Positions 1,988 to 18,797 are shown, numbered from the stretch's first letter. The stretch: DNA of 18,797 nucleotides from a bacterium UBP1_UBA4771 (GCA_002403295.1 DHHN01000209.1:10489-29285), one strand, 5' to 3'. A program made the numbers and translations. The notes: generated by a model from the sequence alone, not told the origin.

Positions 1988-2021
1988 CGCGTGGCGCGGC
2001 TCTCGCCGCTTGCCTCCTTGC

Positions 2022-2864: not shown

Positions 2865-2933
2865 GTCACCCCGCGTGCAGAATGCATCTTCTTGTTTTGT
2901 AACGGGATACCGAACGGTTCCCGCCCTCATTCG

Positions 2934-4736: not shown

Positions 4737-4738
4737 CG

Positions 4739-5626: not shown

Positions 5627-5632
5627 TGCTTC

Positions 5633-6607: not shown

Positions 6608-6689
6608 CCGCTTCTCCCGCGTCGACATATTGCAGCGATGGTAAATCGCGGGGCAGGGGTATTTCAACCACTATCGAAGAGCGGCGGCG

Positions 6690-6738
6690 GGACGCCGCAG
6701 GGACGCCGCAGAATAGGAACGCCGCAGGGACGCCGCAG
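6690..6738. promoter_or_regulatory. Direct-repeat array in the pstS / operon-A divergent intergenic region: 4 copies of the 11-bp unit G(G/A)ACGCCGCAG, arranged as a 27-bp tandem duplication
   Basis: The sequence reads gGACGCCGCAGGGACGCCGCAGAATag then gAACGCCGCAGGGACGCCGCAGAATgc. 11-bp (one helical turn) phased direct repeats are the architecture of OmpR/PhoB-family response-regulator sites. This is not the E. coli Pho-box sequence. Confidence 0.4.
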
Positions 6739-6765
6739 AATGCTGCTGAACGGGCGGGGGGCGTA

Positions 6766-6830: not shown

Positions 6831-9122
6831 ATGAAGAGAACGAAATCGGCCGTCTTCGCGCTGTGCGCGACAGCCGCCGTCGCGGCCTTTCTCGTCGCCT
6901 CGATCAAGCGCGTCCCTCCCGGAAACGAGGCGCTGCGGATTTCGAGGGGGGGACAGCCGCAGATTCTGGGATCGGGCTGGCATTTCGTACGCCCGCTGTC
7001 GGGAGCATTCGCCGTTTATCCCGTCGGCGAGGTCTCCGTGCGATTCCCGCAGGACGGGACCGCCGCCGTGCTCCTCGGGGACGGACGCGAAACGGCGGCC
7101 GCTCTCTCCTTTCGGTTGAAGATCCCCCGCGGCTCGGCGCAAAGCCTGCACGAAATCCTCGGGAGGAACTTCTCCGCCGGCTTCGATCGTATCGTCCGCG
7201 ACGCCGTCGAAATTCGGGCCGCGTCGTGGGAAACCGGCGCCGGGGGAGAGGCGCCCGAGGCCTTCGCTCGAGCCGTCGCCTCGGACCTCGCGGAAAGCCT
7301 CTCCGGCGCGCGCGTCGAAATCCTCGCCGCGAGGGTCGAGTCCTGGGGCGATGCCGCCGGCGAGGCGCCGGCGGCCGAGGCGAACGTCTCCGCGGCGCCC
7401 CTTCGGAAGATCGTCTTCATCGGGGTCGACGCCGGCGACTGGGGAATCATCAATCCCCTGATCAGGGAAGGAAGGCTCCCCAACTTCAAGAAAATCGTCG
7501 AGGGCGGCGCCACGGGCCCCCTTCGATCGATGGATCCGATGATCTCCCCGCTTCTCTGGACGACGATGGCGACGGGCAAGCTCCCCGAGGCGCACGGGAT
7601 CTTGAGCTGCACCGCCGTCGATCCCGCGACCGGGGCGCAGATCCCGATCACGCGGATGTACCGCAAGGTCGACGCCTTTTGGAACATGATGAGCGATTAC
7701 GGGCGGAGCGTCGCCGTCATCGGCTGGCTCGCGACCTATCCCGCCGAGACGATACATGGAACGATGGTCACCGACCGGGTCGGCTACCTCGCGTATGCGG
7801 CGACGCTCGGACAGGGCGACGCGCCCCTTCCCGGCGCCGTCTCCCCCCCCGAGCGCGCGGAAGAGATCAATGGGCTCATCGTTCGAAGCAGGGATGTTTC
7901 CTTCGACGAGATGAAGCGTTTCATGCATGTCGACAAGGCCGAGCTCGAGCGCAGCCGCACCGACCGGTTCGACGCCCACAACCTCGTGAACGACATGATC
8001 CTTATATACGCCACGGCGTCGAGCTATCGCGCGATCGCCCTCCACCTGCTCGAGAAGGATCGTCCGGATTTCCTCGGCGTCTATTTCGAGCTCGTGGACG
8101 CGGCCGGTCATCTATTCATGCCGTTCGCGCCGCCGCGGAGAGAGAGCGTGAGCGAAGAGGACTACCGGAAGTACAAGGACGCGATGACGGAGACCTACGT
8201 GTTTCAGGACCGGATCATCGGCGAGCTGCTCGAGCGGTGCGACGACAATACGGTCGTCATGATCACGAGCGATCACGGCTTCAAGAGCCTCGACGCGAGA
8301 CCCACCGCGGACGCCGGGATCACGGGCGGCCACGCCCTGCAATGGCACAATCCCGAGGGGATCGTCTGTCTCTACGGCCCGGGCATCCGCCGCGGTGGCC
8401 GGATCGAGGGCGCCTCCATCATCGACGTCACGCCGACGATACTCGCGCTCGCGGGGTTCCCGCGCGTCGAGGACATGCCGGGGCGCGTGCTCGGCGAGGC
8501 GTTCGAACCGTCGCTCGCTTCATCCGTCAATCCGGCCTCGGTCGCGACGCTCCAGCGGCGCCGCGCCCCCGAAAGCGCGCCCGTGCCGCGGGGAGGCGCC
8601 CTCGAGGACGCCGAGATGAGAAAGCTCGAGGCCCTGGGCTACATCACGGTCGAGAATCCCGACGCCCTCAACAATCTCGGACAGCGCTACCAGAATCAGG
8701 GCGAGTTCGAAAAGGCGATCGCGGAGTTCAAGAAGGCGCTCGCCCTGCGGCCCAACCACGCGGGAACTCTCAATAACCTCGGCGTATCCTACGGCAGGCT
8801 CAAGCGCTATCCGGAAGCGGAGGAGGCCTTCCTGCGGGCGCTCGAGGTGAAGCCGAAGGATATGTTCGCGATGAACAACCTCGCCGTGCTGTACATGGAG
8901 AGCGGACGGCTCGACCAGGCTCGACGCTACGCCGAGCAGGCGGCCGCGACGGAGCCGAAGTACGCGAACGGGCGCTATTCCCTCGGCGTGATCTACGCGC
9001 ATGCGGGAGAGTTCGACCGGGCGACGAAGGAGTTCGAGGCGGCGCTCGCGATCGAACCGGACAACGCGCGTTTCCGCGCCGCGCTCGAACAGTGCCGGCG
9101 GGATGCGGGCGCCCGGAGATAA
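6831..9122 (+). CDS. Multi-domain membrane protein (763 aa): N-terminal TM anchor, SPFH/band-7-like domain, alkaline-phosphatase-superfamily catalytic domain (type I phosphodiesterase / nucleotide pyrophosphatase-like) and C-terminal TPR repeats
   Basis: Start ATG 6831 with AGGAG 7 nt upstream. The N-terminus MKRTKSAVFALCATAAVAAFLVASIKR is hydrophobic. The following segment (VPPGNEALRISRGG..ILGSGWHF) resembles the HflK/C SPFH entry. AP-superfamily motifs are IGVDAGDWG (metal Asp), ISPLLWTTMATG..HGI (Ser/Thr nucleophile region), FELVDAAGH and ITSDHGF. About 5 TPR units span roughly 8650-9110 (LNNLGQRY.., LNNLGVSYG.., MNNLAVLYM.., RYSLGVIYA..). Confidence 0.8.
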   Translation: MKRTKSAVFALCATAAVAAFLVASIKRVPPGNEALRISRGGQPQILGSGWHFVRPLSGAFAVYPVGEVSVRFPQDGTAAVLLGDGRETAAALSFRLKIPRGSAQSLHEILGRNFSAGFDRIVRDAVEIRAASWETGAGGEAPEAFARAVASDLAESLSGARVEILAARVESWGDAAGEAPAAEANVSAAPLRKIVFIGVDAGDWGIINPLIREGRLPNFKKIVEGGATGPLRSMDPMISPLLWTTMATGKLPEAHGILSCTAVDPATGAQIPITRMYRKVDAFWNMMSDYGRSVAVIGWLATYPAETIHGTMVTDRVGYLAYAATLGQGDAPLPGAVSPPERAEEINGLIVRSRDVSFDEMKRFMHVDKAELERSRTDRFDAHNLVNDMILIYATASSYRAIALHLLEKDRPDFLGVYFELVDAAGHLFMPFAPPRRESVSEEDYRKYKDAMTETYVFQDRIIGELLERCDDNTVVMITSDHGFKSLDARPTADAGITGGHALQWHNPEGIVCLYGPGIRRGGRIEGASIIDVTPTILALAGFPRVEDMPGRVLGEAFEPSLASSVNPASVATLQRRRAPESAPVPRGGALEDAEMRKLEALGYITVENPDALNNLGQRYQNQGEFEKAIAEFKKALALRPNHAGTLNNLGVSYGRLKRYPEAEEAFLRALEVKPKDMFAMNNLAVLYMESGRLDQARRYAEQAAATEPKYANGRYSLGVIYAHAGEFDRATKEFEAALAIEPDNARFRAALEQCRRDAGARR
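6900..7420 (+). other. SPFH/band-7-like domain region of protein A (tentative)
   Basis: Pattern match from memory to the HflC/HflK N-terminal region. No profile search was possible. Confidence 0.35.
8650..9110 (+). other. TPR repeat domain of protein A
   Basis: Repeating approximately 34-aa units are present. They show the W-LG-Y / A-F-A-P TPR signature residues (NLG..Y....EAI..F..AL...P). Confidence 0.7.
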
Positions 9123-9237: not shown

Positions 9238-10413
9238 ATGATACAGGCCCACGGCGGACAATTGGTGAATCGCCTCGCCGGCGAGCACGAACGGGCGGCG
9301 CTCGTCGCGCGCGCCGAGACGCTCCCTTCGATCACGCTCAACCGCAGGGAGGTTTCCGATCTCCACCTCATCGCCGTCGGCGCCATGAGCCCGCTCGAGG
9401 GGTTCATGGTCCGGGACGAATACGAGAGCGTTCTCGACGCCATGCGGTTGCCCCGCGGCCTCCCGTGGACCCTTCCCGTCACCCTGTCGATCAAGGACGC
9501 CGACGCCGCCCGGACGCGCCCGCCGTTCGAGGCGGCGCTCCGCGACGAGCGCGGAGCCGCGCTCGGGGTCATGCGCGTCGACGACGTGTACGAGGTCGAC
9601 CGGGAACGCGAGGCCGAGAAGGTTCTCCTCACGACCGACGGCGCGCATCCCGGCGTTCAATATCTCCGCTCGATCGAGGGCGCGTACGCCGGCGGACCGG
9701 TCACGCTCTTCGAGCGGATGGTCGACCCGCAATTCGAAACGTTCCACCTCGACCCGCGGGAAACGCGGATCCTCTTCAAGACGAAGGGCTGGGAGCGGGT
9801 CGTCGCCTTTCAGACGCGCAATCCGATCCACCGCGCGCACGAGTACCTCCTCAAATGCGCGCTCGAGATGACGGACGGGCTCCTCATCCATCCCATCATG
9901 GGGGAAACGAAATCGGACGACATTCCCGCCGCCGTCCGCATGCTCTGTTACCAGGCGATCGTGAGCGAGTATTTTCCGAAGGACCGGGTGGTTCTCTCGG
10001 TCTTTCCGGCCGCGATGCGTTACGCGGGGCCGCGCGAGGCGATCTTTCACGCGATCCTGAGAAAGAACTACGGCTGCACGCACATGATCATCGGGCGGGA
10101 TCACGCGGGCGTCGGCTCGTACTACGGCACCTATGACGCGCAGCGCATCTTCGACGCGTTCGAGCCGGACGAGCTGGAGATCGTCCCCATGATGTTCGAG
10201 CACGCCTTTTACTGCACGAAGTGCGCGGCGATGAGCTCTCCCAAGACGTGCCCCCACGGGAAGGACGCGCACCTGCAGCTCAGCGGAACGCGCGTTCGCG
10301 AGATGCTCGCGCGGGACGAGGCGCTCCCGCCCGAGTTCACCCGGCGGGAGATCGCCGAGGTGCTCGAACGCCATTATGCCGCGCGCGCCGCGAAGCGCCC
10401 GCACGAATCCTGA
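9238..10413 (+). CDS. sat: Sulfate adenylyltransferase (ATP sulfurylase), homo-oligomeric Sat type
   Basis: The motif QTRNPIHRAHE (the HxxH motif of ATP sulfurylase) is present. A PUA-like N-terminus (MIQAHGGQLVNR) and GRDHAGVG are also present. I chose the start at ATG 9238 because the listed ORF's first codon at 9229 is TTG. The C-terminal motif Cys-x2-Cys-x8-Cys-x-His resembles the Zn site of Thermus-type Sat. Confidence 0.9.
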   Translation: MIQAHGGQLVNRLAGEHERAALVARAETLPSITLNRREVSDLHLIAVGAMSPLEGFMVRDEYESVLDAMRLPRGLPWTLPVTLSIKDADAARTRPPFEAALRDERGAALGVMRVDDVYEVDREREAEKVLLTTDGAHPGVQYLRSIEGAYAGGPVTLFERMVDPQFETFHLDPRETRILFKTKGWERVVAFQTRNPIHRAHEYLLKCALEMTDGLLIHPIMGETKSDDIPAAVRMLCYQAIVSEYFPKDRVVLSVFPAAMRYAGPREAIFHAILRKNYGCTHMIIGRDHAGVGSYYGTYDAQRIFDAFEPDELEIVPMMFEHAFYCTKCAAMSSPKTCPHGKDAHLQLSGTRVREMLARDEALPPEFTRREIAEVLERHYAARAAKRPHES

Positions 10414-10429
10414 GCCGGAGAATGGAGCG

Positions 10430-11821
10430 ATGCCGAAAAAGCTCGCCGTTATCGGTCTCGATTGCCTGACGCCGCAGTTCCTCTACGGCGGCGGGCTCGA
10501 CGGGATGCCCAATTTCAAGCGGCTCATCGAAGGCTCGCTCTGGGGGAATCTCGTCTCGATCGTGCCCCCCATCACGGTTCCCGCGTGGACGTCGATGATG
10601 ACCTCGCAGGATCCCGGCATGCTCGGCATCTACGGTTTCCGCAACCGGAAAAGCTACGCGTACGAAGAGCTCTACACGGTCAACGCGAGCAACGTCAAGG
10701 CCAAGACGGTCTGGAATTACCTCTCGAGAAACCGCCTGCGCTCGATCCTCCTCGGCGTCCCGCAGACGTATCCGCCGATGCCGCTCAATGGCGTTCTCGT
10801 CGCCGACTTTCTCACGCCGGGCAAGGAATCGACGTTCACCTACCCGCCGGGGCTCAAGGAAGAGATCGACCGCGTCGCGGACGGCGAGTACATCATCGAC
10901 GTCAAGGACTTCAGAACCGACGATAAGAAATCGCTCCTCGAGCAGATCTACGTCATGACGGAGCGGCGATTCAAGGTCTTCCGGCACCTTCTCGCCCGCG
11001 AGGATTGGGATTTCGCGATGATGGTCGAGATGGGACCCGACCGGATCCATCACGCGTTCTGGCGGTTCTGCGATCCCTCGCACCGCCTATACGTCAAGGG
11101 GAACGAGTACGAGGACGTCATCCGGCGCTACTACGCCCGTCTCGATCTCGAGATCGGACGGGTGCTCGAGGCGCTTCCGTCCGACGCGTCGGTGATCGTC
11201 GTTTCGGACCACGGCGCCAAGGCGATGCGCGGGGGCATCTGCATAAACGAGTTCTTCATCCGGGAGGGTCTCCTCGCCGTCAAGGAGTATCCGAAACGAC
11301 CCGTCTCCCTCACGCCGGCGATGATCGACTGGCGGAAGACCGCGGCGTGGGGCGAGGGCGGCTACTACGCGCGCGTGTTCCTCAACGTGGCCGGACGCGA
11401 GAGCGAGGGAACGGTGCCGCGCGCCGAATACGAACGCGTCCGCGCCGACGTGAAGCGCCGTCTCGAGGGGCTCGCGGACGAGAACGGAACGAACATCGGC
11501 ACGCGCGTCTTCTATCCCGAGGAGATCTACCGGAGATGCGAAAACATTCCGCCCGATCTCATCGTCTACCTCGGCGATCTCGACTGGCGGAGCGCGGGAA
11601 GCGTGGGACACGGGGCGATCCACATCTTCGAGAACGACACGGGGCCCGACGACGCGAATCACGCGCAGGAGGGGATTTTCATCTGGCACAACCGCGGCGG
11701 CGCGGGACGCGTGACGTCGAGCCCCGCCGGAGACAAGATATCGATCTACGACGTCGCCCCGTCGATCCTCGATTTCTTCTCGATCGAGGTTCCTCCGGAC
11801 ATGATCGGACGGGTGGTATAG
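10430..11821 (+). CDS. Alkaline phosphatase superfamily protein, type I phosphodiesterase / nucleotide pyrophosphatase-like (paralog B, cytosolic, 463 aa)
   Basis: Start ATG 10430 with GGAG 2 nt upstream; the listed ORF begins at 10376. Motifs are LAVIGLDCL (metal Asp), PPITVPAWTSMMTS (nucleophile region), HHAFWRFCDPSH and VVSDHGA. No signal peptide or TM segment is present. Confidence 0.85.
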   Translation: MPKKLAVIGLDCLTPQFLYGGGLDGMPNFKRLIEGSLWGNLVSIVPPITVPAWTSMMTSQDPGMLGIYGFRNRKSYAYEELYTVNASNVKAKTVWNYLSRNRLRSILLGVPQTYPPMPLNGVLVADFLTPGKESTFTYPPGLKEEIDRVADGEYIIDVKDFRTDDKKSLLEQIYVMTERRFKVFRHLLAREDWDFAMMVEMGPDRIHHAFWRFCDPSHRLYVKGNEYEDVIRRYYARLDLEIGRVLEALPSDASVIVVSDHGAKAMRGGICINEFFIREGLLAVKEYPKRPVSLTPAMIDWRKTAAWGEGGYYARVFLNVAGRESEGTVPRAEYERVRADVKRRLEGLADENGTNIGTRVFYPEEIYRRCENIPPDLIVYLGDLDWRSAGSVGHGAIHIFENDTGPDDANHAQEGIFIWHNRGGAGRVTSSPAGDKISIYDVAPSILDFFSIEVPPDMIGRVV

Positions 11822-11868
11822 ATCGCGGGATGCGGCATCGCGAAACGCCGTTTCACAGGGAGATGACA

Positions 11869-12471
11869 ATGAAAGGTTTCACGCTCTGGTTCACCGGCCT
11901 TCCCTGCTCGGGCAAGTCGACGCTGGCGCGGCGCGTTCAGGAGATCCTCCTCGAGCGCGGGATGAACGTCGAGCTCCTCGACGGCGACGAGGTGCGGCAG
12001 AACCTTTGCAAGGGCCTCGGATACTCCAAGGAGGATCGGGACACGAATATCCGGCGCATCGGCTACGTGTGCAAGCTCCTCAGCCGCAACGGCGCGGTCG
12101 CCGTCGCCGCCGCCATCTCCCCGTACCGGGAGATCCGCGAGGAGAATAGACGCGCCATCGCCGCCTACGTCGAGGTCTACGTGAAGGCGCCGATCGAGGT
12201 GCTCGCGAAACGGGACGTCAAGGGGATGTACAAAAAGGCGCTTGCCGGCGAGATAACGAACTTCACCGGCGTCTCCGACCCGTACGAGGAACCCGAGCGC
12301 CCGGAGATCCTGATCGAATCGGACAAGGAAACGGTCGAAGACAGCACCGCGAAGATCATCCGCACGCTCGAAGTCATGGGTCTCATTCCGGGAGCACCCG
12401 CCGAAAGCGAGTATTCACCGGAGGAAGAAGAGAAGATCAAGACCCGGCTCAAGGATTTGGGATACATCTAG
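11869..12471 (+). CDS. cysC: Adenylylsulfate (APS) kinase with a 25-aa acidic C-terminal extension ending in LGYI
   Basis: P-loop WFTGLPCSGKSTLA is present. LDGDEVR.NLCKGLGYSKEDRDTNIRR aligns with E. coli CysC ([27 protein letters not shown]). KGMYKKALAGEITNFTG corresponds to KGLYKKARAGELRNFTG. GGGAG lies 7 nt upstream of ATG 11869. Confidence 0.9.
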   Translation: MKGFTLWFTGLPCSGKSTLARRVQEILLERGMNVELLDGDEVRQNLCKGLGYSKEDRDTNIRRIGYVCKLLSRNGAVAVAAAISPYREIREENRRAIAAYVEVYVKAPIEVLAKRDVKGMYKKALAGEITNFTGVSDPYEEPERPEILIESDKETVEDSTAKIIRTLEVMGLIPGAPAESEYSPEEEEKIKTRLKDLGYI

Positions 12472-12485
12472 AGGGAGCGGGCACG

Positions 12486-13790
12486 CTGCGCACACGGAGG
12501 AAGAAGGTCGCATGCGTCGTCGGTCTCGACGGCGTCCCCTTCTCGTTCATCCGCGGCATGATCGATTCCGGCGTCATGCCGAGGATGAAGGAGATCGTGT
12601 CGCGGGGCCGCATGGCGCCGATGACCGCCTCCCTTCCTGAAATCTCCTCGGTGAGCTGGTCAACGTTCATGACGGGCCTCGATCCCGGCGGCCACGGCAT
12701 CTTCGGCTTCACCGATTTCAAGGATGCGAGCTACGCGCTGCGCTACCCCTCCTTCCGCGACCTCGGGGCGCCCACGATCTGGGACCGGCTCGGCGAACGG
12801 CGGATGAGGAGCGTCGTCATCGATCAGCCCGCCACGTACCCCGCGCGTCCCATTCCCGGCGTTTTGATATCGGGCTTCGTCGCGCTCGACCTCGAGAAGG
12901 CGGTCGCTCCCCGCTCCTACCTCGCCGCACTTCGAGGCATGAACTACGAAATCGACATCGATGCGGCGAAATGCAGGGACAACCCGGACGAGCTCTTCTC
13001 CGCTCTCGGCAAGCGCCTCGCCGAAAGACGCTCCGTCGTCGACGCCCTGTGGGAGAAGGAAGAGTGGAATCTCATGGAGATCGTCGTAACGGGCACCGAC
13101 CGGCTCCACCATTTCATGTGGGACGCCTGCGAGGACGCGAACCATCCCCGCCGCGAGGACGTGCTCGCCTATTACCGCGCGATCGACGATTTTCTGGGGC
13201 ACGTGTACGAGAAGTTCCGCCGCCTCGACGCGGGCGGCAATTTCTTCATGCTCTCCGATCACGGCTTCTGCGCCGCGAAACGAGAGGTGTACGTGAACGC
13301 CGTCCTTCGCGCGGAGGGATTTCTCGATCTCGCGCCCGGCGCATCGTCCCTCGAGGGGATCACGGAGCGCACGAAAGCCTTCGCGCTCGATCCCGCGCGC
13401 ATTTACATCAACCGCGCGGGGCGATTCCCCCGGGGACGCATCGACGAGGCGGACGCGAAGTCCCTGCTCGAGGATCTCGCGGCGATATTCGACGCGCTCG
13501 AGGTCGGGGGAGAGCGGGTCGTGCGGCGGCGGTTCACGGGCCGAGAAGCGTATTCGGGACCCTTCGCCCGCCGCGGCCCGGATCTCGTGCTCGTTCCGCG
13601 AAACGGCTTCGATCTCAAGGGCCGCCCCGGCGCCGCGGAGATATCGGGCGAGAGGCGCTTTCAGGGAATGCACACGTGGGAAGACGCCTTCTTTTTCTCG
13701 CTCGACCCGGCGGCGATCGAAGATCCGAACGATCTCAACATCGTGGACGTCCCGAAAACGATCTTGAGGAGCATCGATGTCGAACCATAG
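12486..13790 (+). CDS. Alkaline phosphatase superfamily protein, PPase/PDE-like (paralog C, cytosolic). The start codon is uncertain; this call is a CTG start with the first ATG at 12558
   Basis: Homology to the paralog N-termini (KKVACVVGLDGVPFSF vs KKLAVIGLDCLTPQF) extends 15-24 codons upstream of the first in-frame ATG. The only start-like in-frame codon upstream is CTG 12486, 8 nt after GAGGGAG. Motifs are ISSVSWSTFMTG..GHGIF, HHFMWDACEDANH and LSDHGF. Confidence 0.7.
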   Translation: MRTRRKKVACVVGLDGVPFSFIRGMIDSGVMPRMKEIVSRGRMAPMTASLPEISSVSWSTFMTGLDPGGHGIFGFTDFKDASYALRYPSFRDLGAPTIWDRLGERRMRSVVIDQPATYPARPIPGVLISGFVALDLEKAVAPRSYLAALRGMNYEIDIDAAKCRDNPDELFSALGKRLAERRSVVDALWEKEEWNLMEIVVTGTDRLHHFMWDACEDANHPRREDVLAYYRAIDDFLGHVYEKFRRLDAGGNFFMLSDHGFCAAKREVYVNAVLRAEGFLDLAPGASSLEGITERTKAFALDPARIYINRAGRFPRGRIDEADAKSLLEDLAAIFDALEVGGERVVRRRFTGREAYSGPFARRGPDLVLVPRNGFDLKGRPGAAEISGERRFQGMHTWEDAFFFSLDPAAIEDPNDLNIVDVPKTILRSIDVEP

Positions 13791-15858
13791 AGGAACGCGC
13801 GCGGTCCGCGTTTCGATATGCGCCATCCTGTGCGCGCTCGGCGCGCCGGCCGCCGCGCACGCCTATATCGGCCCCGGCGCCGGCTTCGCGCTCGTTTCGT
13901 CGTTCCTCTCTTTCGTGCTCGCGTTCTTCGCCGCGTTTCTCGCCCTCTTGACCTTTCCGCTCCGCATGCTCTGGAAGAGGATGAGGCGCAAGCGCGCGCC
14001 GCGGGCGCCGCGCGCGGACAAGGTGATCGTCCTCGGGCTCGACGGCCTCGACCCCGCGATCTGCGAGCGCCTCATGGTCGCCGGCCGACTCCCCAACCTT
14101 TCGCGCCTCGCCGCCGCGGGAACGTTCCGCCGGCTCGGCACCTCGACGCCGGCGATGTCACCCGTCGCGTGGTCCACCTTCAGCACCGGCGTCGACGCCT
14201 CGCGCCACGGCATCTTCGATTTTCTCGCGCGGGATCCGAACACGTACCTCCCCGTCCTTTCCTCGAGCCGCGTCACCGCGTCGAAGCGGTTTCTGCGGCT
14301 CGGCCCCTTTCGGCTGCCGCTCGGGAAAGGAAGCGTCCGCTTTCTCCGAAAGAGCACGAGCGTCTGGAAGGTGCTCGGCGAATACGGAATCTTCAGCACC
14401 GTTCTCCGGGTCCCGATCACCTTTCCCCCGGAGCCATTGAACGGCGTCATGCTCTCCGGCATGTGCGCGCCCGATCTGCGCGGGACGATGGGATCGTTCA
14501 CGTATTTCCGCCGGGGCGAATCGGGCGGCAGGATCGGCGGCATGGTGATCGCCCTCGAGGAGAAGGACGGCGTCCTTCGGGCGTCCCTTCCCGGCCCGGA
14601 GAGCCCGGTCGCCCGCGAAACCTTGAAGCTCCCCCTCGAGATCCGCGTCGACGCGAAGAGGCGGGGCGCCGAGATTCGCGTGTCCGGCGCGCGTTTTTTC
14701 CTCCCCGAGCGGGCGTACTCGCCGTGGATCCGCCTCGCCTTCAAGGCCGCGCCGGGCGTCACGCTCCATGGCATCGCGCGGTTTTTCATCACGCGCCTCG
14801 ACGGCGACTTCGGGCTCTACGTATCGCCGATCCACATCGATCCAGAAAAACCCGCCATGCCGGTCTCCTACCCCGCGTTCTACTCGGTGTATCTCGCCAA
14901 ACGCCTCGGCGGGCCGTTCGGAACGCTCGGCCTCGCCGAGGACACGTGGGCGCTGAACGAGGGGGTTCTCGACGAAGAGGCCTTTATCGCGCAGGCGTAT
15001 CTCTTCCACCGCGAGCGCGAGGCGATGTTCCTCCACACGCTGCGCACGCAGAAGAAGGGCCTCGTCGCGTGCGTCTTCGATCTCAGCGACCGCATGCAAC
15101 ACATGTTCTTCCGGTATCTCGCGGATGACCTCGACCCCGGCGCGGCGGCGCCGGAGCGCCGCGAAACGCTCGACGAGATGTACCGCGAGATGGACGCGCT
15201 CGTCGGCAAGACGTCGGCGTTCGTCGACGGCCGGACGGCGCTCTTCGTGATCTCGGATCACGGCTTCAAGGCATTCAGGCGCGGCGTCGATCTCAACGTC
15301 TGGCTCATGCGGAACGGATATCTCGCGCTGCGCGCCGACGCGCGCGGTGACGAATTCCTCCGCGACGTCGATTGGTCGAAGACGCGGGCCTACGCGCTCG
15401 GGCTCGGGGGCGTGTATCTCAACATGAAGGGACGCGAGCGGCACGGAACGGTCGAGGCATCGGAGGCCCCCATGCTGAAAGAAGAGATCGCATCGAAGCT
15501 CCTCGCGCTCGGGGATGAGGGCGGCGGGGCGCCGGTCGTGAGCCGCGTGTTCGACACCGCTCGGGACTTCACGGGCCCGTACCGCGCGGAGGGACCGGAT
15601 CTCATCGTGGGACTCGCGGAAGGCTACCGGATTTCCTGGGACTGCGCGAGGGGGCTCGTGCAGGACGCCGTCATCGAGGATAACGAGAAGAGCTGGAGCG
15701 GCGATCACTGCATCGATCCCGCGCTCGTTCCCGGCGTTCTCTTTTCGAACATGCGCGTCGAGGCAATCGACCCGAATATCGCGGACATCGCGCCGACCAT
15801 TCTCGGGCTCTTCGGCATCGATCCGCCGCGATACATGACGGGGAGGGATCTCCTGTGA
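13777..15858 (+). CDS. Alkaline phosphatase superfamily protein, PPase/PDE-like (paralog D, 693 aa) with an N-terminal two-helix membrane hairpin and polybasic stretch
   Basis: ATG 13777 lies 5 nt after GAGGAG and overlaps the gene C 3' end by 14 nt. The N-terminus has two hydrophobic segments (VSICAILCALGAPAAAHA; FALVSSFLSFVLAFFAAFLALLTF) followed by RMLWKRMRRKRAPRAPRADK. Motifs are VIVLGLDGL, MSPVAWSTFSTG..RHGIF, ISDHGF and WSGDHC. Confidence 0.85.
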   Translation: MSNHRGTRAVRVSICAILCALGAPAAAHAYIGPGAGFALVSSFLSFVLAFFAAFLALLTFPLRMLWKRMRRKRAPRAPRADKVIVLGLDGLDPAICERLMVAGRLPNLSRLAAAGTFRRLGTSTPAMSPVAWSTFSTGVDASRHGIFDFLARDPNTYLPVLSSSRVTASKRFLRLGPFRLPLGKGSVRFLRKSTSVWKVLGEYGIFSTVLRVPITFPPEPLNGVMLSGMCAPDLRGTMGSFTYFRRGESGGRIGGMVIALEEKDGVLRASLPGPESPVARETLKLPLEIRVDAKRRGAEIRVSGARFFLPERAYSPWIRLAFKAAPGVTLHGIARFFITRLDGDFGLYVSPIHIDPEKPAMPVSYPAFYSVYLAKRLGGPFGTLGLAEDTWALNEGVLDEEAFIAQAYLFHREREAMFLHTLRTQKKGLVACVFDLSDRMQHMFFRYLADDLDPGAAAPERRETLDEMYREMDALVGKTSAFVDGRTALFVISDHGFKAFRRGVDLNVWLMRNGYLALRADARGDEFLRDVDWSKTRAYALGLGGVYLNMKGRERHGTVEASEAPMLKEEIASKLLALGDEGGGAPVVSRVFDTARDFTGPYRAEGPDLIVGLAEGYRISWDCARGLVQDAVIEDNEKSWSGDHCIDPALVPGVLFSNMRVEAIDPNIADIAPTILGLFGIDPPRYMTGRDLL

Positions 15859-17828
15859 GAATCGCGCACCTCAAGGTTCTGCTCGCGGGCGTCGCGTTGC
15901 TCGCGATCGACGGCGGCGCTTTTCCGGCGGGGACGGCCGGCGCCTCGCCGCGCGAGCGAAGCGTCATCATTCTCGGAATCGACGGAATGGATCCCATTCT
16001 GCTCGAACGTTTCATCGAAAAGGGACGCATGCCGGTTTTCGAAAAGCTCGTGCGGGAGCAATCGTATTCGCTTCTCGAGACCTCCATCCCTCCCCAGAGC
16101 CCCGTCGCGTGGTCGAACTTCATCACCGGCATGGATCCCGGCGGGCACGGCATCTTCGACTACATCGGGAGGGATCTCGAGACGTACCGGCCCTCCTTCT
16201 CGCTCACGCACGTCGACGAGCCGGGACGCGTGCTGCGCGTCGGCGGCTGGGTGATTCCCGTCTCCGCCGGCAAGGCGACTCTTCTCAGGCGGGGGAAGGC
16301 CTTCTGGCAGATACTCGACGAGCACGGCGTGCCATACACGATATCGAGAGTGCCGTCCAACTTTCCGCCCGTGCCGTGCAAGGGCCGGACGCTCTCGGGC
16401 CTCGGAACGCCCGATCTCGCGGGAAGCTATGGAACGTTTTCGTATTTCACGAACGATCCCGCCTTCGCCGGCCTCGAGGTGAGCGGCGGCTCGATATATC
16501 CCGTCGCCGTCGAGAACGGCGCGGTCTCCGCCGTTCTCATCGGTCCGCCGAACACGCTGAGAACGAGCGCCCCCCTTCTCGAAGCGCCCTTCATCGTGCA
16601 TGCCGACGCCGCGCGCGGCGCCGCGAAGATCGTCGTGGGAAAGACGGAGATGATCCTCGCGGTCGGTGAATGGAGTCCGTGGACGGAGGTCTCGTTCGAC
16701 CTCATCGGCCCGCTCCACACGCTCAAGGGCATCTGCCGTTTCTATCTGAAATCGATCGATCCGCACTTCGGCCTCTACGTGACGCCGCTCAACATCCACC
16801 CCGCGCATCCCGCGCTCCCGATCTCCACGCCATCGAGGTACGCGGCCGAGCTCTCCCGCGCGATCGGACACTTCTACACGCAGGGAAACCCCGAGGACAC
16901 GAAGGCGCTCGAGTGGGGCGTCTTCGACGACGCGGAGTTCATCCATCAGGCGAGACTCGTTCTCGGCGAGCAGCGGCGGATGCTCGACGCGGCCCTCGAC
17001 GAGCATGACGGCGGCTTGCTCTTCTTTTACGTTTCGACGCTCGATCTCTGCCAGCACATGCTGTGGAGAAACATGGACCCCGCCCACCCCGCTCATTTCG
17101 AAGAGGCCGCGGCGCACAAGGACGAAATCGAAAACCTCTACGTCGAAATGGACCGCCTCGTCGCGCACGTGCTCGAGCGGATCCCGCCCGATGCCGCGTT
17201 CATCATCATGTCGGACCACGGCTTTTCTCCTTACTACCGGAAATTCAACCTCAACACGTGGCTCCTCGAGAACGGCTATCTCGAGCTCGTCGATCCGGCC
17301 GCGATGGAGCGCTCGCGGCTCTTCGAAAACGTCCACTGGAGAAAAACGAAGGCGTACGGCGTGGGCTTCAACGGACTCTACGTGAACCTTCGCGGACGCG
17401 AGGGCAAGGGGATCGTGCGCGCGGGCGCCGAATGCGAAGAGCTGCTCCGCGAAATCGGCGACAAGCTCCTCGCCGCGAAGGATCCCGAAACGGGGGCCTC
17501 GCCGATTCGGAGCGTGTATCGCGCGAGCGAGATCTATCACGGCGCGGAAGCGCGGAACGCCCCCGACCTCGTCATCGGATACCGGCGGGGGTATCGCTGC
17601 AGCGATCAATCGGTGCTCGGAGATTTCACGCGGGACGTCTTCGGTTGGAACATGGACAAATGGAGCGGCGATCACTGCATGGCCGCGGAGGAGGTTCCCG
17701 GCATCCTCATCGCGAACAGGAAACTGCGCGTGAGCGATCCGCGGCTCGGCGATTTCGCGGCCACGATCCTCTCGCTCTTCGGCATCGACGGCTCGAAGGC
17801 GCCGGCATCGAGCCGCTCGATCTTCTAA
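15855..17828 (+). CDS. Alkaline phosphatase superfamily protein, PPase/PDE-like (paralog E, 657 aa) with a predicted Sec signal peptide
   Basis: GTG start at 15855, in a GTGA overlap with the gene D stop. GGGAGGG lies 7 nt upstream. The N-terminus MRIAHLKVLLAGVALLAIDGGAFPAGTAGA-SP is signal-like. Motifs are VIILGIDGM, SPVAWSNFITG..GHGIF, MSDHGF and WSGDHC. It is closest in sequence to paralog D. Confidence 0.85.
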   Translation: MRIAHLKVLLAGVALLAIDGGAFPAGTAGASPRERSVIILGIDGMDPILLERFIEKGRMPVFEKLVREQSYSLLETSIPPQSPVAWSNFITGMDPGGHGIFDYIGRDLETYRPSFSLTHVDEPGRVLRVGGWVIPVSAGKATLLRRGKAFWQILDEHGVPYTISRVPSNFPPVPCKGRTLSGLGTPDLAGSYGTFSYFTNDPAFAGLEVSGGSIYPVAVENGAVSAVLIGPPNTLRTSAPLLEAPFIVHADAARGAAKIVVGKTEMILAVGEWSPWTEVSFDLIGPLHTLKGICRFYLKSIDPHFGLYVTPLNIHPAHPALPISTPSRYAAELSRAIGHFYTQGNPEDTKALEWGVFDDAEFIHQARLVLGEQRRMLDAALDEHDGGLLFFYVSTLDLCQHMLWRNMDPAHPAHFEEAAAHKDEIENLYVEMDRLVAHVLERIPPDAAFIIMSDHGFSPYYRKFNLNTWLLENGYLELVDPAAMERSRLFENVHWRKTKAYGVGFNGLYVNLRGREGKGIVRAGAECEELLREIGDKLLAAKDPETGASPIRSVYRASEIYHGAEARNAPDLVIGYRRGYRCSDQSVLGDFTRDVFGWNMDKWSGDHCMAAEEVPGILIANRKLRVSDPRLGDFAATILSLFGIDGSKAPASSRSIF

Positions 17829-17851: not shown

Positions 17852-18046
17852 ATGTTCGACCCGAAGGTCAAGATAGACAAGGAGCTCTACGCGAAGCTCA
17901 AGAGAGCGGCCGAGGTCGCGGGCTATTCGTCGGTCGATGAGTTCATTATCCACGTTCTCGAGAGAGAAGTGTCGAAGCTCGGCGGCGACGAGGCGACCGA
18001 CGAAGAGATACGAAAGAAACTCGAGGGGCTGGGGTATATCTCCTGA
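17852..18046 (+). CDS. Small (64 aa) ribbon-helix-helix (CopG/Arc/MetJ-like) putative DNA-binding protein with an acidic C-terminal tail ending ..KKLEGLGYIS
   Basis: ATG 17852 lies 23 nt after the gene E stop. KVKIDKELYAKLKRAAEVAGYSSVDEFIIHVLEREV fits the RHH beta-alpha-alpha pattern. GC3 bias is coding-like. It sits inside the longer listed frame 17063-18046. Confidence 0.6.
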   Translation: MFDPKVKIDKELYAKLKRAAEVAGYSSVDEFIIHVLEREVSKLGGDEATDEEIRKKLEGLGYIS

Positions 18047-18057
18047 TTCGTGAGATT

Positions 18058-18797
18058 ATGGAACTCATTTCGAAGATCATAACGGCCGTGCTCGACGCGC
18101 TGCTCATCCCGTTCGGCGAGGGACGTCATGCGCTCGGCCTCGCGTGGCTCTCGCTTCTCACGGGCGTGGGCATGGCGCTCGTCTTCAAGCTCACGTCCGA
18201 CACAAGAAAGATCAAACAGGCCAAGGATCTCGGCAAGTCGTTCATCCTCGAGATGCGGATCTATCGCGACGACGCGGGAACGATCTTCGCCTCGTTTTTC
18301 CGCTCGCTCCGGGCGAATCTCGTCTACCTGCGCCACATGCTGCCGCCGTTCCTCGCGATCGTCGTTCCCGCCGCCCTCATTTTCATGCAGCTCGACGAGC
18401 GGTACGGCCGAAGCCACCTTCCCGCCGGTTCGACGACCGTTCTCTCCGTCTTTCTCGCGGAGGGCGCGGGGGCGCTCGCGGAGCGCTCTTCCGTCGCCTG
18501 CGGCCCGGGAGTCGCCGTGGAGGCCGGTCCGGTATGGATCAGCGGGACGCGCGAGCTCGCCTGGCGTCTCAGGATCGACGCTCCCGGCACGCACGATGTC
18601 GCGATCTCGATCGATGGAAGCGAGTATGTCGTGCCGCTCGTCGCCGAGACGGCGCACCGGATGATCGGTCACGCGCGAAGCTCGTCCGTCATCGAATCGC
18701 TTCTTCATCCCGGCCTTCCGCCCATCCCCGACGGCTCGCCCATCGAGACCGTGCGGCTTCGCTATCCCGGGGCCCGCTATCCGCTCCTCTTCTGGCG
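18058..18797 (+). CDS. Hypothetical membrane protein with at least 2 TM segments; 3' end lies beyond the window
   Basis: The frame is open from ATG 18058 to the window end, with strong GC3 bias. It is not in the supplied track because no stop occurs in the window. Hydrophobic segments are ALGLAWLSLLTGVGMALVF and MLPPFLAIVVPAALIFM. The listed antisense ORF 17923-18708 is therefore probably spurious. Confidence 0.55.
   Translation, partial: MELISKIITAVLDALLIPFGEGRHALGLAWLSLLTGVGMALVFKLTSDTRKIKQAKDLGKSFILEMRIYRDDAGTIFASFFRSLRANLVYLRHMLPPFLAIVVPAALIFMQLDERYGRSHLPAGSTTVLSVFLAEGAGALAERSSVACGPGVAVEAGPVWISGTRELAWRLRIDAPGTHDVAISIDGSEYVVPLVAETAHRMIGHARSSSVIESLLHPGLPPIPDGSPIETVRLRYPGARYPLLFW

Follow-up and report, generated by a model that had tools for sequence, protein, structure and literature searches.

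Genes for sulfate activation (sat and cysC) that are interleaved with PF01663 genes, NPP-type members of the alkaline phosphatase (AP) superfamily, constitute a real cluster that is conserved across many phyla. In the bacterium UBP1_UBA4771 (GCA_002403295.1, DHHN01000209.1:10489-29285) they form a single compact plus-strand operon, located in a window of 18,797 nucleotides (the whole stretch of DNA that was analysed, to which all positions refer). No description of a Sat/CysC plus AP-fold cluster was found in the literature searched, and the cluster may point to a previously undescribed route by which activated sulfate is produced or used for the cell envelope.

Layout of the operon and its occurrence in other genomes

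Genes were called by GC3 frame analysis together with Pfam/NCBIfam scans, which gave the following features:

3115..6667, minus strand: pstSCAB phosphate ABC transporter, divergent neighbour (Pfam and NCBIfam matches)
6689..6741, strand not applicable: two direct repeats of 26 nt in the divergent pstS/A control region
6831..9122 (alternative start 6777), plus strand: A, TM segment, weak Band_7, PF01663 and TPR
9238..10413, plus strand: sat, sulfate adenylyltransferase (ATP sulfurylase) of the homo-oligomeric type, PUA_2 and ATP-sulfurylase domains
10430..11821, plus strand: B, cytoplasmic NPP-fold AP-superfamily enzyme with predicted Thr49 nucleophile (PF01663, 152 bits)
11869..12471 (alternative start 11830), plus strand: cysC, APS kinase with a C-terminal helix tag
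12486/12558..13790, plus strand: C, cytoplasmic PF01663 paralog, predicted Ser nucleophile
13777..15858, plus strand: D, membrane-anchored PF01663 paralog, predicted Ser nucleophile, insertion of approximately 170 aa
15855..17828, plus strand: E, exported PF01663 paralog, predicted Ser nucleophile, insertion as in D
17852..18046, plus strand: RHH-like protein of 64 aa, weak RHH_1/TacA1 matches
18058..18797, plus strand, continuing past the window end: membrane protein by hydropathy, 273 aa in the full contig (L001)

The order A-sat-B-cysC-C-D-E-RHH-membrane protein, all on the plus strand, had been described in an earlier sequence-only reading and is borne out by the frame analysis and the Pfam/NCBIfam matches, except that the region had been taken to begin at 9238, whereas A is situated upstream of this position. 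The spacers of 14-115 nt and the overlaps given there agree with those measured: 115 nt between A and sat, 16 nt between sat and B, 14 nt between cysC and C (given a C start at CTG 12486), 23 nt between E and the RHH gene and 11 nt between the latter and the membrane-protein gene; C and D overlap by 14 nt, and the start of E overlaps the stop codon of D in GTGA. A terminator-like site was not detected in any intergenic gap of the operon. For C, CTG 12486 is the likely start, because a start at ATG 12558 loses the GLDG metal-Asp strand; the in-frame upstream translation KKVACVVGLDG agrees with the N-termini of the orthologs.

Sat matched PF14306 and PF01747 as well as NF003166 (532 bits, cut-off 387) and TIGR00339 (416 bits, cut-off 323), and its translation contains the catalytic motifs QTRNPIHRAH and GRDHAG. 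CysC matched PF01583 (5e-59), NF002059 (256 bits, cut-off 244) and TIGR00455 (221 bits, cut-off 139), with the P-loop GLPCSGKST present. By family assignment, both enzymes together are predicted to make PAPS. The RHH-like gene, whose relatives are annotated as CopG or Arc/MetJ RHH proteins in the source records, is kept 3' of E in approximately 14 loci and is followed by the membrane-protein gene in approximately 12 loci. Hydropathy indicates 3-4 hydrophobic segments and a loop domain of approximately 135 aa for the membrane protein, for which Pfam and NCBIfam scans gave no match.

At least 587 species representatives from more than 10 phyla encode a relative of B with more than 50% identity. 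Sat and/or CysC is encoded within 3 kb of B in 35 of the 54 loci whose flanks extend for 2.5 kb or more; these 35 include Latescibacterota, Krumholzibacteriia, Acidobacteriota, Thermodesulfobacteriota, Verrucomicrobiota, Poribacteria, Armatimonadota, Anaerolineae and candidate division B38. Neither gene is situated within this distance in the other 19 loci, and in 12 loci B occurs with CysC and without Sat within 3 kb. B is linked to Sat/CysC in at least four gene orders; the full order Sat-B-CysC-C-D-E-RHH-Mem was observed in approximately 10 loci, and in at most 15 if contig-truncated or Sat-less loci are included. The genes of the Sat-B-CysC sandwich overlap or are separated by no more than about 50 nt. 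Natural fusions are rare and comprise Sat-B, CysC-B and B-pyruvate kinase-Sat, as well as fusions of B to a GT2 and to a methyltransferase. A fusion of B to an NTP_transferase (sugar/phosphonate nucleotidyltransferase) occurs in L096, where the surrounding phosphonate/LicD glycan cluster lacks sulfur genes. An adjacency unique to this genome had been named as a ground for rejecting the association; instead, several arrangements and fusions were observed across phyla.

The context of the relatives is of the envelope type, with Wzx, Wzz, WecA-like, glycosyltransferase, GmhA/HddA and flippase-like genes. B is situated between GmhA and a HddA-like heptose kinase in Verrucomicrobiota, and it also occurs in Wzx/Wzz/glycosyltransferase clusters with no Sat or CysC nearby. 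Relatives of the window locus share a polysaccharide-biosynthesis context with bacterial PAPS-dependent sulfation clusters. NodPQ with NodH, RaxPQ with RaxST and the cyanobacterial sulfated-EPS clusters likewise dedicate a Sat/CysC pair to modification of the envelope or of a secreted product; these clusters, however, encode canonical sulfotransferases (PF00685, PF13469, PF03567), in whose place the window-type operon has AP-fold enzymes.

Active sites, localisation and the C-terminal tag

All five AP-type proteins retain a G[LIV]D metal Asp, the x[ST]PxxW nucleophile motif, D-x3-H and SDHG, and PF01663 scores for A, B, C, D and E are 108, 152, 114, 92 and 105 bits (Pfam gathering cut-off 23), D being matched in two stretches. 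The predicted nucleophile is Thr in B (PPITVPAW) and Ser in A, C, D and E (xxSPVAW or ISSVSW). A two-metal site of the NPP type is predicted for each of the five. The alternative of an fGly-sulfatase-like site did not hold, the sites being of the phosphoester type (Thr/Ser plus two metals, NPP fold). In contrast to fGly sulfatases (S1, PF00884), the operon AP-type proteins lack the C/S-x-P/A-x-R motif and have Thr/Ser in x[ST]PxxW as nucleophile. No fGly-generating enzyme is encoded in the operon, and PF00884 was matched by A only (22.8 bits, cut-off 25), with no match of B, C, D or E at E<=0.01.

B has an NPP-like three-dimensional fold and, by motif, a full two-metal site. Assigned by motif position rather than from coordinates, its active-site residues D11, T49, D204, H208, D260, H261 and H411 are invariant across 12 homologs and, except for D11 (at least 90%), also across 66 homologs. 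GFRNR, DRIHH and ENDTGPDDANH are invariant motifs of its own, and B is 50-80% identical across phyla. Neither a solved structure nor a characterised member was found for its subfamily. B and its paralogs resemble NPPs (Xanthomonas NPP, ENPP4/6/7) and PhnA (PF01663) in the Thr/Ser nucleophile and the two-metal ligand motifs, but B is only 14-18% identical to these enzymes, is cytoplasmic and approximately 80 residues larger, and differs further in its tight genetic linkage to Sat and CysC and in a C-terminal helix tag, which it either bears itself or recruits. The previous label "COG1524-type" needs correction, since the JGI name of B, "predicted AlkP superfamily phosphohydrolase/phosphomutase", is presumably that of COG3379 and not of COG1524.

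The paralogs are 24-31% identical to B and do not form an equivalent set: the core, universal and highly conserved, is B, to which C, D and E are less conserved accessories, and A is a lineage-specific addition. In B and C, hydropathy indicates neither a TM segment nor a signal peptide. S30, D181, H185, D234, H235 and H372 of C (numbering of the 410-aa form) are invariant. The conserved N-termini of D comprise a signal-like segment, an invariant AxA-Y[IV]GPGAGFA motif, a TM segment and an R/K-rich stretch; due to the position of this stretch behind the TM segment, the catalytic domain is predicted to be cytoplasmic. E of the window has an N-terminal signal peptide and its orthologs have Tat motifs (RRDFL, SRREFL) or lipoboxes, so that E is exported and has no direct access to PAPS.

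CysC ends in a 19-aa helix, YSPEEEEKIKTRLKDLGYI (12412-12468), of the form ...RLxxLGY[ILM]. This tag is present in all 36 CysC genes located downstream of B and in none of the seven located upstream. A CysC-type tag, DEEIRKKLEGLGYIS (17999-18043), also forms the C-terminus of the RHH-like protein, and A contains an internal tag-like motif, EDAEMRKLEALGYI (8604-8645). Across lineages the carriers are CysC, B, a second B-like paralog, PF00884-type proteins and two kinds of RHH protein; in the AF2 prediction of a natural B-plus-tag protein, a disordered linker (pLDDT <50) is followed by a helix (pLDDT ~65-73). Since the mobile tag is found on CysC, RHH proteins or B itself, a physical complex is suggested.

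Possible use of PAPS and proposed roles of B

In a crude scan of 80 loci, a canonical sulfotransferase 5'-PSB motif (PKxGTT-like) was present in none of the ORFs of at least 150 aa. None of the operon proteins matched PF00685, PF13469 or PF03567, and no sulfotransferase occurred among the recurrent neighbour families scanned (most of those found in at least four loci). In L094 and L095, a Sat-B fusion is located beside canonical Sulfotransfer_3 genes. A PHP domain, not encoded in the window, occurs as fusion or neighbour in relatives: it is fused to C in five Acidobacteriota loci, follows B directly in four further loci (L054, L059, L073 and L093) and is situated approximately 6 kb downstream in L094 and L095. 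Its best PDB match is the pAp phosphatase Cv1693 (2YB1, E 1.5e-44), with RNase RNM second-best; the best NCBIfam match, NF041577, reaches 225 bits and stays under the 400-bit equivalog cut-off. The fusion of this pAp-phosphatase-like domain to C and its position after B suggest that PAPS is consumed within the cluster.

Thus it is tempting to speculate, and we regard it as possible rather than probable, that the cluster is a widespread sulfate-activation module in which B would act as an AP-fold sulfuryl transferase from PAPS, the group being passed to the envelope via C, D and E. The tag would dock CysC and the RHH-tag proteins onto B, and PAPS would be handed directly from CysC to B, whose Thr would attack the sulfuryl group, giving a covalent sulfo-Thr enzyme and releasing pAp in a ping-pong mechanism as in the AP-fold transferases EptA and LtaS. 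Soluble C and the cytoplasmic-face catalytic domain of D may relay the group to an envelope lipid or glycan intermediate, which could cross the membrane by means of the operon membrane protein or of a divergent MprF-type flippase-like protein encoded in many relatives. Exported E might complete the transfer or trim the product outside the cytoplasm, and the RHH-tag proteins may couple operon expression to enzyme occupancy. The linkage of B to Sat/CysC in several orders and fusions, the lack of another candidate PAPS user in the motif scan and among the neighbour families, PHP domains as signs of pAp production, the cytoplasmic B and C together with the topology of D, the shared tag, the envelope-type context and the intact active sites of every paralog are consistent with sulfuryl transfer by B. 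Against it stands the NPP-type site (Thr/Ser plus two metals), which is an archetype for phosphoryl and nucleotidyl rather than sulfuryl transfer, and we know of no PAPS-dependent sulfotransferase of NPP-type fold. Furthermore, since Sat-B adjoins Sulfotransfer_3 genes in L094 and L095, B is not required as transferase there; sulfur genes are missing around the L096 fusion, Sat and CysC are both absent from the 3 kb around B in 19 of 54 loci, the high identity of B suits a small universal substrate better than varied acceptors, and the PHP match stays under the equivalog cut-off, with RNase RNM second-best. The earlier proposal that the paralogs act on APS/PAPS or on sulfated products is supported in part by the Sat/CysC linkage, the PHP domain and the missing sulfotransferase motif, but not for exported E, and an accessory role of B competes with it.

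Due to the Sulfotransfer_3 neighbours of Sat-B and the L096 fusion, such an accessory role, e.g., PPi removal, is a serious rival, though one we hold doubtful. As a tethered hydrolase of pyrophosphate (phosphoanhydride), B would pull the Sat reaction and other NTP-dependent activations in a Sat-B-CysC metabolon held by the tag, ATP + sulfate -> APS + PPi being very unfavourable; C/D or unlinked enzymes would then consume PAPS. PPi can serve as a substrate of AP-superfamily enzymes, e.g., tissue-nonspecific alkaline phosphatase, but to our knowledge the NPP clade contains no dedicated inorganic pyrophosphatase. In favour of this role, both nucleotidyltransferases to which B is fused, Sat (P0250) and NTP_transferase (P0316), release PPi; enzymes that recycle other by-products, pyruvate kinase for ADP and PHP for pAp, occur as fusions or neighbours; canonical transferases occur alongside B in L094 (Sulfotransfer_3) and L096 (LicD); and the extreme conservation of B fits a small universal substrate. 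A precedent is given by the ATP sulfurylase-inorganic pyrophosphatase fusion of stramenopiles and haptophytes, for which the unfavourable equilibrium has been named as the reason (PMC2275785). As in the eukaryotic ATPS-APK (PAPS synthase) and stramenopile ATPS-PPase fusions, activation enzymes are coupled here to a pulling or channelling partner (Sat-B, CysC-B), but the partner is NPP-fold B and not an inorganic pyrophosphatase of family I or II. PPi hydrolysis by B is further at odds with the 12 loci that have CysC without Sat nearby, with the tag on CysC and not on Sat, and with the fusions to GT2 and methyltransferase, which release no PPi; it leaves C, D, E and the absence of another PAPS user in the conserved operon unexplained.

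We consider it rather improbable that the AP-type proteins are envelope phospho-headgroup transferases or phosphoesterases (phosphoglycerol, phosphoethanolamine or phosphonate transfer, a GmhB-like sugar-bisphosphate phosphatase, a phosphomutase) co-regulated with sulfation by canonical sulfotransferases encoded elsewhere. Such a role agrees with the fold and the active site, both typical of phosphoryl-transfer enzymes, and with the heptose-gene and Sat/CysC-free Wzx/Wzz contexts of B. EptA/MCR-1, LtaS, OpgB and BcsG belong to the same superfamily and transfer onto envelope acceptors by ping-pong via a covalent Thr/Ser intermediate; E resembles such transferases in export and D in its membrane anchor. 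In contrast to B and C, which are soluble and cytoplasmic, these enzymes have multi-span membrane domains, periplasmic catalysis and phospholipid donors; moreover, such a role would not explain why B is fused to Sat and CysC, why CysC has the same tag and why the genes form a 0-50-nt sandwich, and window-type operons lack glycosyltransferase or head-group-donor genes. With still lower probability, B and its paralogs would control flux as PAPS/APS pyrophosphatases or detoxify pAp as CysQ-like 3'-phosphatases: the fold of B is of the NPP type, PAPS hydrolysis has been reported for NPP enzymes (Yoshida et al. 1983, as cited in PMC8038981), and B could take the place of PHP or CysQ, neither of which is encoded nearby in most window-type loci. 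PAPS hydrolysis beside PAPS synthesis would nevertheless be a futile cycle, B would be redundant in the approximately 10 loci with candidate PHP-type pAp phosphatases, and four to five paralogs, some of them membrane-anchored or exported, are superfluous for flux control. Redundant scavenging of phosphate by five Pho-regulon phosphatases/diesterases with an incidental sat/cysC adjacency is very improbable and, after the neighbourhood census, close to refuted, in line with the earlier judgement that it is the less specific explanation. PF01663 does contain phosphate-scavenging enzymes and pstSCAB is divergently adjacent across a shared repeat-bearing region, but B and C are cytoplasmic, pst adjoins the cluster only in two close relatives (L008 and L040) among 80 loci in contrast to the widespread Sat/CysC adjacency, and B is fused to Sat and CysC. 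An export signal together with conserved pst/pho linkage, as in secreted Pho-regulon phosphatases, was not found for the set overall.

Protein A and the pstS/A control region

A matched PF01663 (1.1e-30), TPR families and, weakly, SPFH/Band_7 (1.9e-6). An N-terminal TM segment, the only N-terminal hydrophobic segment by hydropathy, is followed by Band_7, PF01663, the internal tag-like motif and TPR repeats, and A is probably exported. Of the 80 loci, L008 and L040 alone contain full-length relatives; A is outside the conserved core and represents a lineage-specific first gene of the operon. Likewise, pstSCAB is neighbouring context outside the conserved system; next to a PstS-family binding protein and two permeases it encodes PstB (TIGR00972, 338 bits, slightly below the 343-bit cut-off). 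With sulfuryl transfer by B as the preferred reading, the operon of the window lineage would have gained A and lies back-to-back with pst under a repeat-bearing control region, which may link envelope sulfation to phosphate supply. The repeat sequence is not conserved in L008 or L040. In the window, the repeats at 6689..6741 hold four GACGCCGCAG units, the first two 11 nt apart, against 0.13 occurrences expected by chance in the window, and are a candidate site of a regulator shared by pstS and A; a TATAAT is located nearby at approximately 6769.

Gene map and operon structure

At a G+C content of about 65%, raw ORF lists of the window are crowded with shadow ORFs, and a GC3 filter was applied. 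The gene map is based on this filter, on Pfam and NCBIfam scans and on gene calls for six contigs with an identical Sat gene and the same gene order, all of which agree.

Genes of the window (coordinates, strand, description)
551-2930, minus strand: GltD-like / DHODB-FeS oxidoreductase pair
3115-6667, minus strand: pstSCAB phosphate transporter
6831-9122, plus strand: A, with TM segment, weak Band_7 match, PF01663 and TPR
9238-10413, plus strand: sat, score above the NCBIfam cut-off
10430-11821, plus strand: B, PF01663
11869-12471, plus strand: cysC, score above the NCBIfam cut-off
12486/12558-13790, plus strand: C, PF01663
13777-15858, plus strand: D, PF01663
15855-17828, plus strand: E, PF01663
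17852-18046, plus strand: RHH-like protein of 64 aa
18058 to past the window end, plus strand: membrane protein

The single plus-strand operon described in the sequence-only reading was confirmed together with its spacers and overlaps. C and D overlap by 14 nt and D and E by GTGA, the remaining gaps measure 11-115 nt, and a promoter/terminator scan of the window revealed no terminator-like site between the operon genes and nothing above chance. An Rfam scan of the window at gathering thresholds gave no match. The start of the operon, placed at 9238 by that reading, has to be revised, as A lies upstream of it.

The ATG at 12558, called as the start of C, would remove the first strand with the metal-binding Asp. 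Upstream of this codon, KKVACVVGLDG runs in frame and agrees with the N-termini of the orthologs. Due to this conserved N-terminus and the lack of an ATG, GTG or TTG at the ortholog-type start (12474-12560), C likely starts with CTG at 12486, which is preceded by GAGGGAG. All six contigs that share the identical Sat gene (L001-L006) have the same sequence in this region, and a sequencing error is thus excluded.

Of the minus-strand pair at 551-2930, one gene codes for a GltD-like Fer4_20/Pyr_redox_2 protein and the other for a DHODB-type Fe-S/FAD protein, a combination reminiscent of NfnAB or SudAB-type oxidoreductases and apparently unrelated to sulfate activation.

Linkage of B to sulfate activation

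The gene cluster ties sulfate activation to an uncharacterised, very conserved enzyme family. Relatives of B occur in at least 587 GTDB species representatives according to a profile search, and when 1.84 billion cluster representatives were searched exhaustively with an HMM, 4115 clusters were obtained at E<=1e-30. The best 80 of the at least 587 relatives, all at least 51% identical to B, were taken as loci (L007-L086) and searched with the window proteins by tblastn; 54 of them carry at least 2.5 kb of flank on both sides of B. Within 3 kb of B, both Sat and CysC were found in 20 of these 54 loci, Sat only in 3 and CysC only in 12. An adjacency unique to this genome, which the sequence-only reading had named as a refuting outcome, is thus clearly not the case: it was observed in 35/54 loci, in several arrangements and in fusions. 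It is decisively more than chance.

The order Sat-B-CysC-C-D-E-RHH-Mem, Mem being the membrane protein, is present in about 10 loci, which belong to Latescibacterota, Krumholzibacteriia and unclassified MAGs; contig-truncated or Sat-less variants raise the number to as many as 15. It recurs on soil-metagenome contigs, with a Sat/B overlap of 4 nt. Other arrangements are Sat-CysC-B in Thermodesulfobacteriota, a fused Sat/CysC followed by B in Verrucomicrobiota, B-CysC without Sat in Acidobacteriota, and Sat-B-PHP, with a pAp-phosphatase-like PHP domain protein, in uncultured delta-proteobacterial and Thermodesulfobacteriota MAGs. Latescibacterota, Acidobacteriota and Verrucomicrobiota are among the phyla dominating sediments, soils and digesters.

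Natural fusions among the family representatives comprise Sat-B (856 aa), CysC-B (712 aa), B-pyruvate kinase-Sat (1151 aa) and B-PK, besides fusions of B to NTP_transferase, GT2 and methyltransferase domains. They are rare, with 1-2 members each; in the retrieved contigs, each was called as one gene whose surroundings make sense. The pyruvate-kinase barrel is situated between B and Sat (P0298 in L093, 7459-10914) or after B (P0363, 786 aa), and no cysC occurs within 10 kb in these cases. ATP regeneration and a PEP-dependent kinase activity are both possible roles of this domain.

Active sites, predicted locations and a mobile C-terminal tag

The AF2 model of B is confident (pLDDT 88), and sequence identity to NPP, ENPP and PhnA structures amounts to 14-18%. 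Searched as a single sequence, B had no match in the PDB; its profile gave marginal matches only (sulfatase, ENPP6, PhnA), and by both searches no solved structure was found within its own subfamily. Residues D11, T49, N72, D204, H208, D260, H261 and H411 are invariant in 12 homologs. In 66 homologs they are still invariant, as are many Arg residues, except for D11, which is retained in at least 90%. Based on this pattern, the predicted active site of B is NPP-like, with Thr and two metals, and not fGly-like, which decides between the metal-phosphoester and the fGly-sulfatase type considered in the sequence-only reading. The COG1524 label of that reading was not retained: JGI lists B as "predicted AlkP superfamily phosphohydrolase/phosphomutase", a name that we take to belong to COG3379. 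The NCBIfam scan yielded no family for B, C and the membrane protein.

Identity of the AP-type proteins to B ranges from 24 to 31%. All five have retained the motifs of the active site (metal-Asp, nucleophile, D-x3-H, SDHG), with Ser at the nucleophile position of C, D, E and A. B and C are predicted to lack TM segments and signal peptides. In D, a signal-like segment at the N-terminus leads into an invariant AxA-Y[IV]GPGAGFA motif, behind which come a single TM segment and an R/K-rich stretch (13777-14040 in the window; D orthologs in L007-L056). Due to this order of TM segment and R/K-rich stretch, the catalytic domain of D is predicted to be cytoplasmic; no known family match could be assigned to its N-terminal anchor/processing motif. 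E is predicted to be exported, as it carries an N-terminal signal peptide and its orthologs have Tat motifs or lipoboxes. An insertion of about 170 residues is common to D and E.

CysC and the RHH protein end in a tag of about 20 residues that the sequence-only reading had not described: hydrophobic-[ST]-x-[DE]-E-x3-[IVL]-x3-L-x2-L-G-Y-[ILM], with 0-2 further residues before the C-terminus (in short, ...EEExIxxRLxxLGY[ILM]-COOH). A tag-like motif is also found within A, between the AP and TPR domains.

Tag sites in the window
12412-12468, plus strand: C-terminus of CysC
17999-18043, plus strand: C-terminus of the RHH protein
8604-8645, plus strand: internal in A

The tag recurs in many of L007-L086. 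Where cysC lies downstream of B, CysC is tagged in 36/36 cases and B is then untagged; with cysC upstream of B, the count is 0/7. In ten loci B itself carries the tag (490-507 aa forms). The retrieved flanks of eight of them revealed no CysC, and the other two (L035, L041) have an untagged CysC upstream. Verrucomicrobiota carry the tag on a second B-like paralog and Acidobacteriota on PF00884-type proteins. In L054 and L059, B is followed by tagged proteins of 94-96 aa, which by eye resemble the C-terminal end of CysC. Two kinds of RHH proteins are tagged as well: one of 64 aa encoded after E, the kind present in the window, and one of 70-75 aa whose gene lies upstream of Sat or B. Since tag arrangements are inherited, these cases represent six or seven independent placements and not dozens.

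Modelled with AF2, a natural B+tag protein has a disordered linker (pLDDT <50) that leads to a helix formed by the tag (pLDDT ~65-73). When the tag by itself served as profile query, most matches were RHH proteins of 70-72 aa, and little was gained. In the simplest reading, the tag would be a portable docking helix that gathers CysC, RHH proteins and accessory enzymes on a common receptor, which is probably B, much as C-terminal tails of RHH antitoxins bind toxins. A bolder reading assigns to its invariant Tyr the role of a sulfuryl carrier. Either way the tag would represent a new, genetically portable protein-docking or carrier element. Separately, the tyrosine of "EYS" in the tag was rejected as a tyrosine-sulfation site, because this position varies between Y, F, L, W and V in the tag alignment.

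Candidate functions and the phosphate side

No operon protein matches a canonical sulfotransferase. In the 80 loci a crude scan of ORFs of at least 150 aa found no 5'-PSB motif, and no sulfotransferase was present among the recurrent neighbour families scanned (most of those in at least 4 loci). Due to the lack of such motifs and neighbours, the AP-type enzymes appear to be the only candidate PAPS users in the window-type operon. The link of the AP paralogs to APS/PAPS proposed in the sequence-only reading is well supported for B and reasonably for C; it was modified for E, which is predicted to be exported, and for A, a lineage-specific add-on.

Neighbours in the relatives give further clues. 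A PHP domain is fused N-terminally to C in five Acidobacteriota loci (L069 12619-15015; L022, L034, L037, L042), stands free directly after B in L054, L059, L073 and L093 (10911-11756), and about 6 kb downstream in L094/L095. Its best matches are the 3',5'-nucleotide bisphosphate (pAp) phosphatase Cv1693 (2YB1, E 1.5e-44) and NCBIfam NF041577 (225 bits, below the 400-bit cut-off); pAp is what remains of PAPS once its sulfuryl group has been transferred. Larger loci encode functions of polysaccharide/envelope biosynthesis (Wzx, Wzz, WecA-like, GT2/GT4, PMT_2, GmhA, HddA-like, tagged non-fGly PF00884 proteins). An MprF-type flippase-like gene (PF03706 / TIGR00374) is situated divergently upstream in 13 Latescibacterota and Krumholzibacteriia loci (L087 7520-8515 and 12 more); the window lacks this gene and has A and pst on that side.

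Genetic and architectural coupling, the fold, intact active sites and predicted locations are thus what the analysis shows, whereas the substrate (PAPS), the chemistry (sulfuryl transfer) and the acceptor (in the envelope) are inferred. In the model that we favour, Sat and CysC make PAPS, and B, docked to CysC, would take it over and pass on the sulfuryl group via a covalent enzyme intermediate with release of pAp. A lipid or glycan of the envelope would receive the group by way of C and D, acting at the cytoplasmic side, and of E, acting outside the cytoplasm, and the RHH-tag proteins would regulate or scaffold the system. Our confidence in this model is modest, short of calling it probable. 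It is tempting to go further and regard B, C, D and E as a new class of AP-fold PAPS-dependent sulfotransferases acting via sulfo-Thr/sulfo-Ser, in which tag-docked CysC would load B directly, perhaps with the invariant Tyr of "...LGY[ILM]" as a swinging-arm sulfuryl carrier. D would then make a lipid-linked activated sulfate at the inner membrane face, the intermediate would be flipped to the outer face, and the final, extracellular transfer of sulfate onto envelope polymers would fall to exported E, in a scheme comparable to the undecaprenyl-phosphate-linked pathways for Ara4N and PEtN. This extended version we judge to be quite improbable.

The main competing explanation, which we consider rather unlikely, has B drive donor synthesis through the removal of pyrophosphate or of a different phosphoanhydride by-product. 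B is fused to two PPi-releasing nucleotidyltransferases, other by-product recyclers (PK, PHP) co-occur, and fusions of ATPS to pyrophosphatase exist in eukaryotes (PMC2275785). Canonical transferases are present in L094 and L096 and speak against B as the transferase: L094/L095, which carry the Sat-B fusion, also encode Sulfotransfer_3 proteins, and the NTP_transferase-B fusion of L096 (9992-12166) lies in a phosphonate/LicD cluster without sulfur genes (PEP mutase, LicD, CTP_transf_like-PPDK_N fusion, GT9, Wzx), suggestive of a glycan decorated with phosphonate or phosphocholine. However, in Acidobacteriota B accompanies CysC and not Sat, and the tag sits on CysC; both observations speak against this explanation. 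Phospho-head-group transfer or sugar-phosphate phosphatase activity by B is less likely, as are hydrolysis of PAPS or pAp, for which NPPs reported to hydrolyse PAPS provide a precedent (reference cited in PMC8038981), and plain phosphate scavenging.

All parts of the cluster belong to known superfamilies. Searches of the literature on COG3379, on AP-family proteins with cysC and sat, and on PF01663 or AP-like PAPS sulfotransferases found no paper describing the cluster, and no curated family emerged, in line with the sequence-only reading, which knew of no such pathway. To our knowledge, PAPS-dependent sulfation in bacteria is ascribed only to canonical sulfotransferases, and sulfation of extracytoplasmic polymers is poorly understood. 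If true, AP-fold sulfotransfer would be categorically new and define a new enzyme class, and its extended version would provide a route for extracytoplasmic sulfation in bacteria. B as a tethered PPi-removing partner would solve the thermodynamic problem of sulfate activation in a new way.

Acidobacteriota clusters additionally encode a radical SAM protein with a weak STM4011-family match (L069 15012-17512; L022, L037) and the tagged PF00884 proteins with weak STM4013-family matches (L069 18460-19770; L022, L037). Both families are named for a Salmonella locus, and their names give no function. An assignment as fGly sulfatase and anSME was rejected: TLSSH replaces C/S-x-P-x-R in the one sequence inspected (L069 18460-19770), and the radical SAM protein matches the STM4011 family only weakly.

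In the window the operon lies back-to-back with pstSCAB, with a shared control region of 160 nt. The pstS/A intergenic region contains two 26-nt direct repeats (6689-6741), equal to four GACGCCGCAG units, upstream of a TATAAT at ~6769; the window as a whole has 4 copies of the unit, compared with 0.13 expected by chance. The first two units are 11 nt apart, a spacing as expected for an OmpR/PhoB-type regulator. The repeats could thus be a candidate site for such a regulator common to pst and the operon, and envelope sulfation may be co-regulated with phosphate uptake in this lineage. As a conserved Pho box the repeat is unsupported, since its sequence is not conserved in L008 and L040, the two relatives with the same arrangement. 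Among the 80 loci, A and the pst operon were found beside the cluster by tblastn only in these close relatives. In L040, the closest GTDB relative (B 86% identical), nearly every cluster gene is split into several tblastn pieces, most likely due to frameshift errors of a long-read assembly and not to pseudogenisation; L040 was left out of the protein-family alignments and the tag/CysC contingency table and kept in the 80-locus adjacency census.
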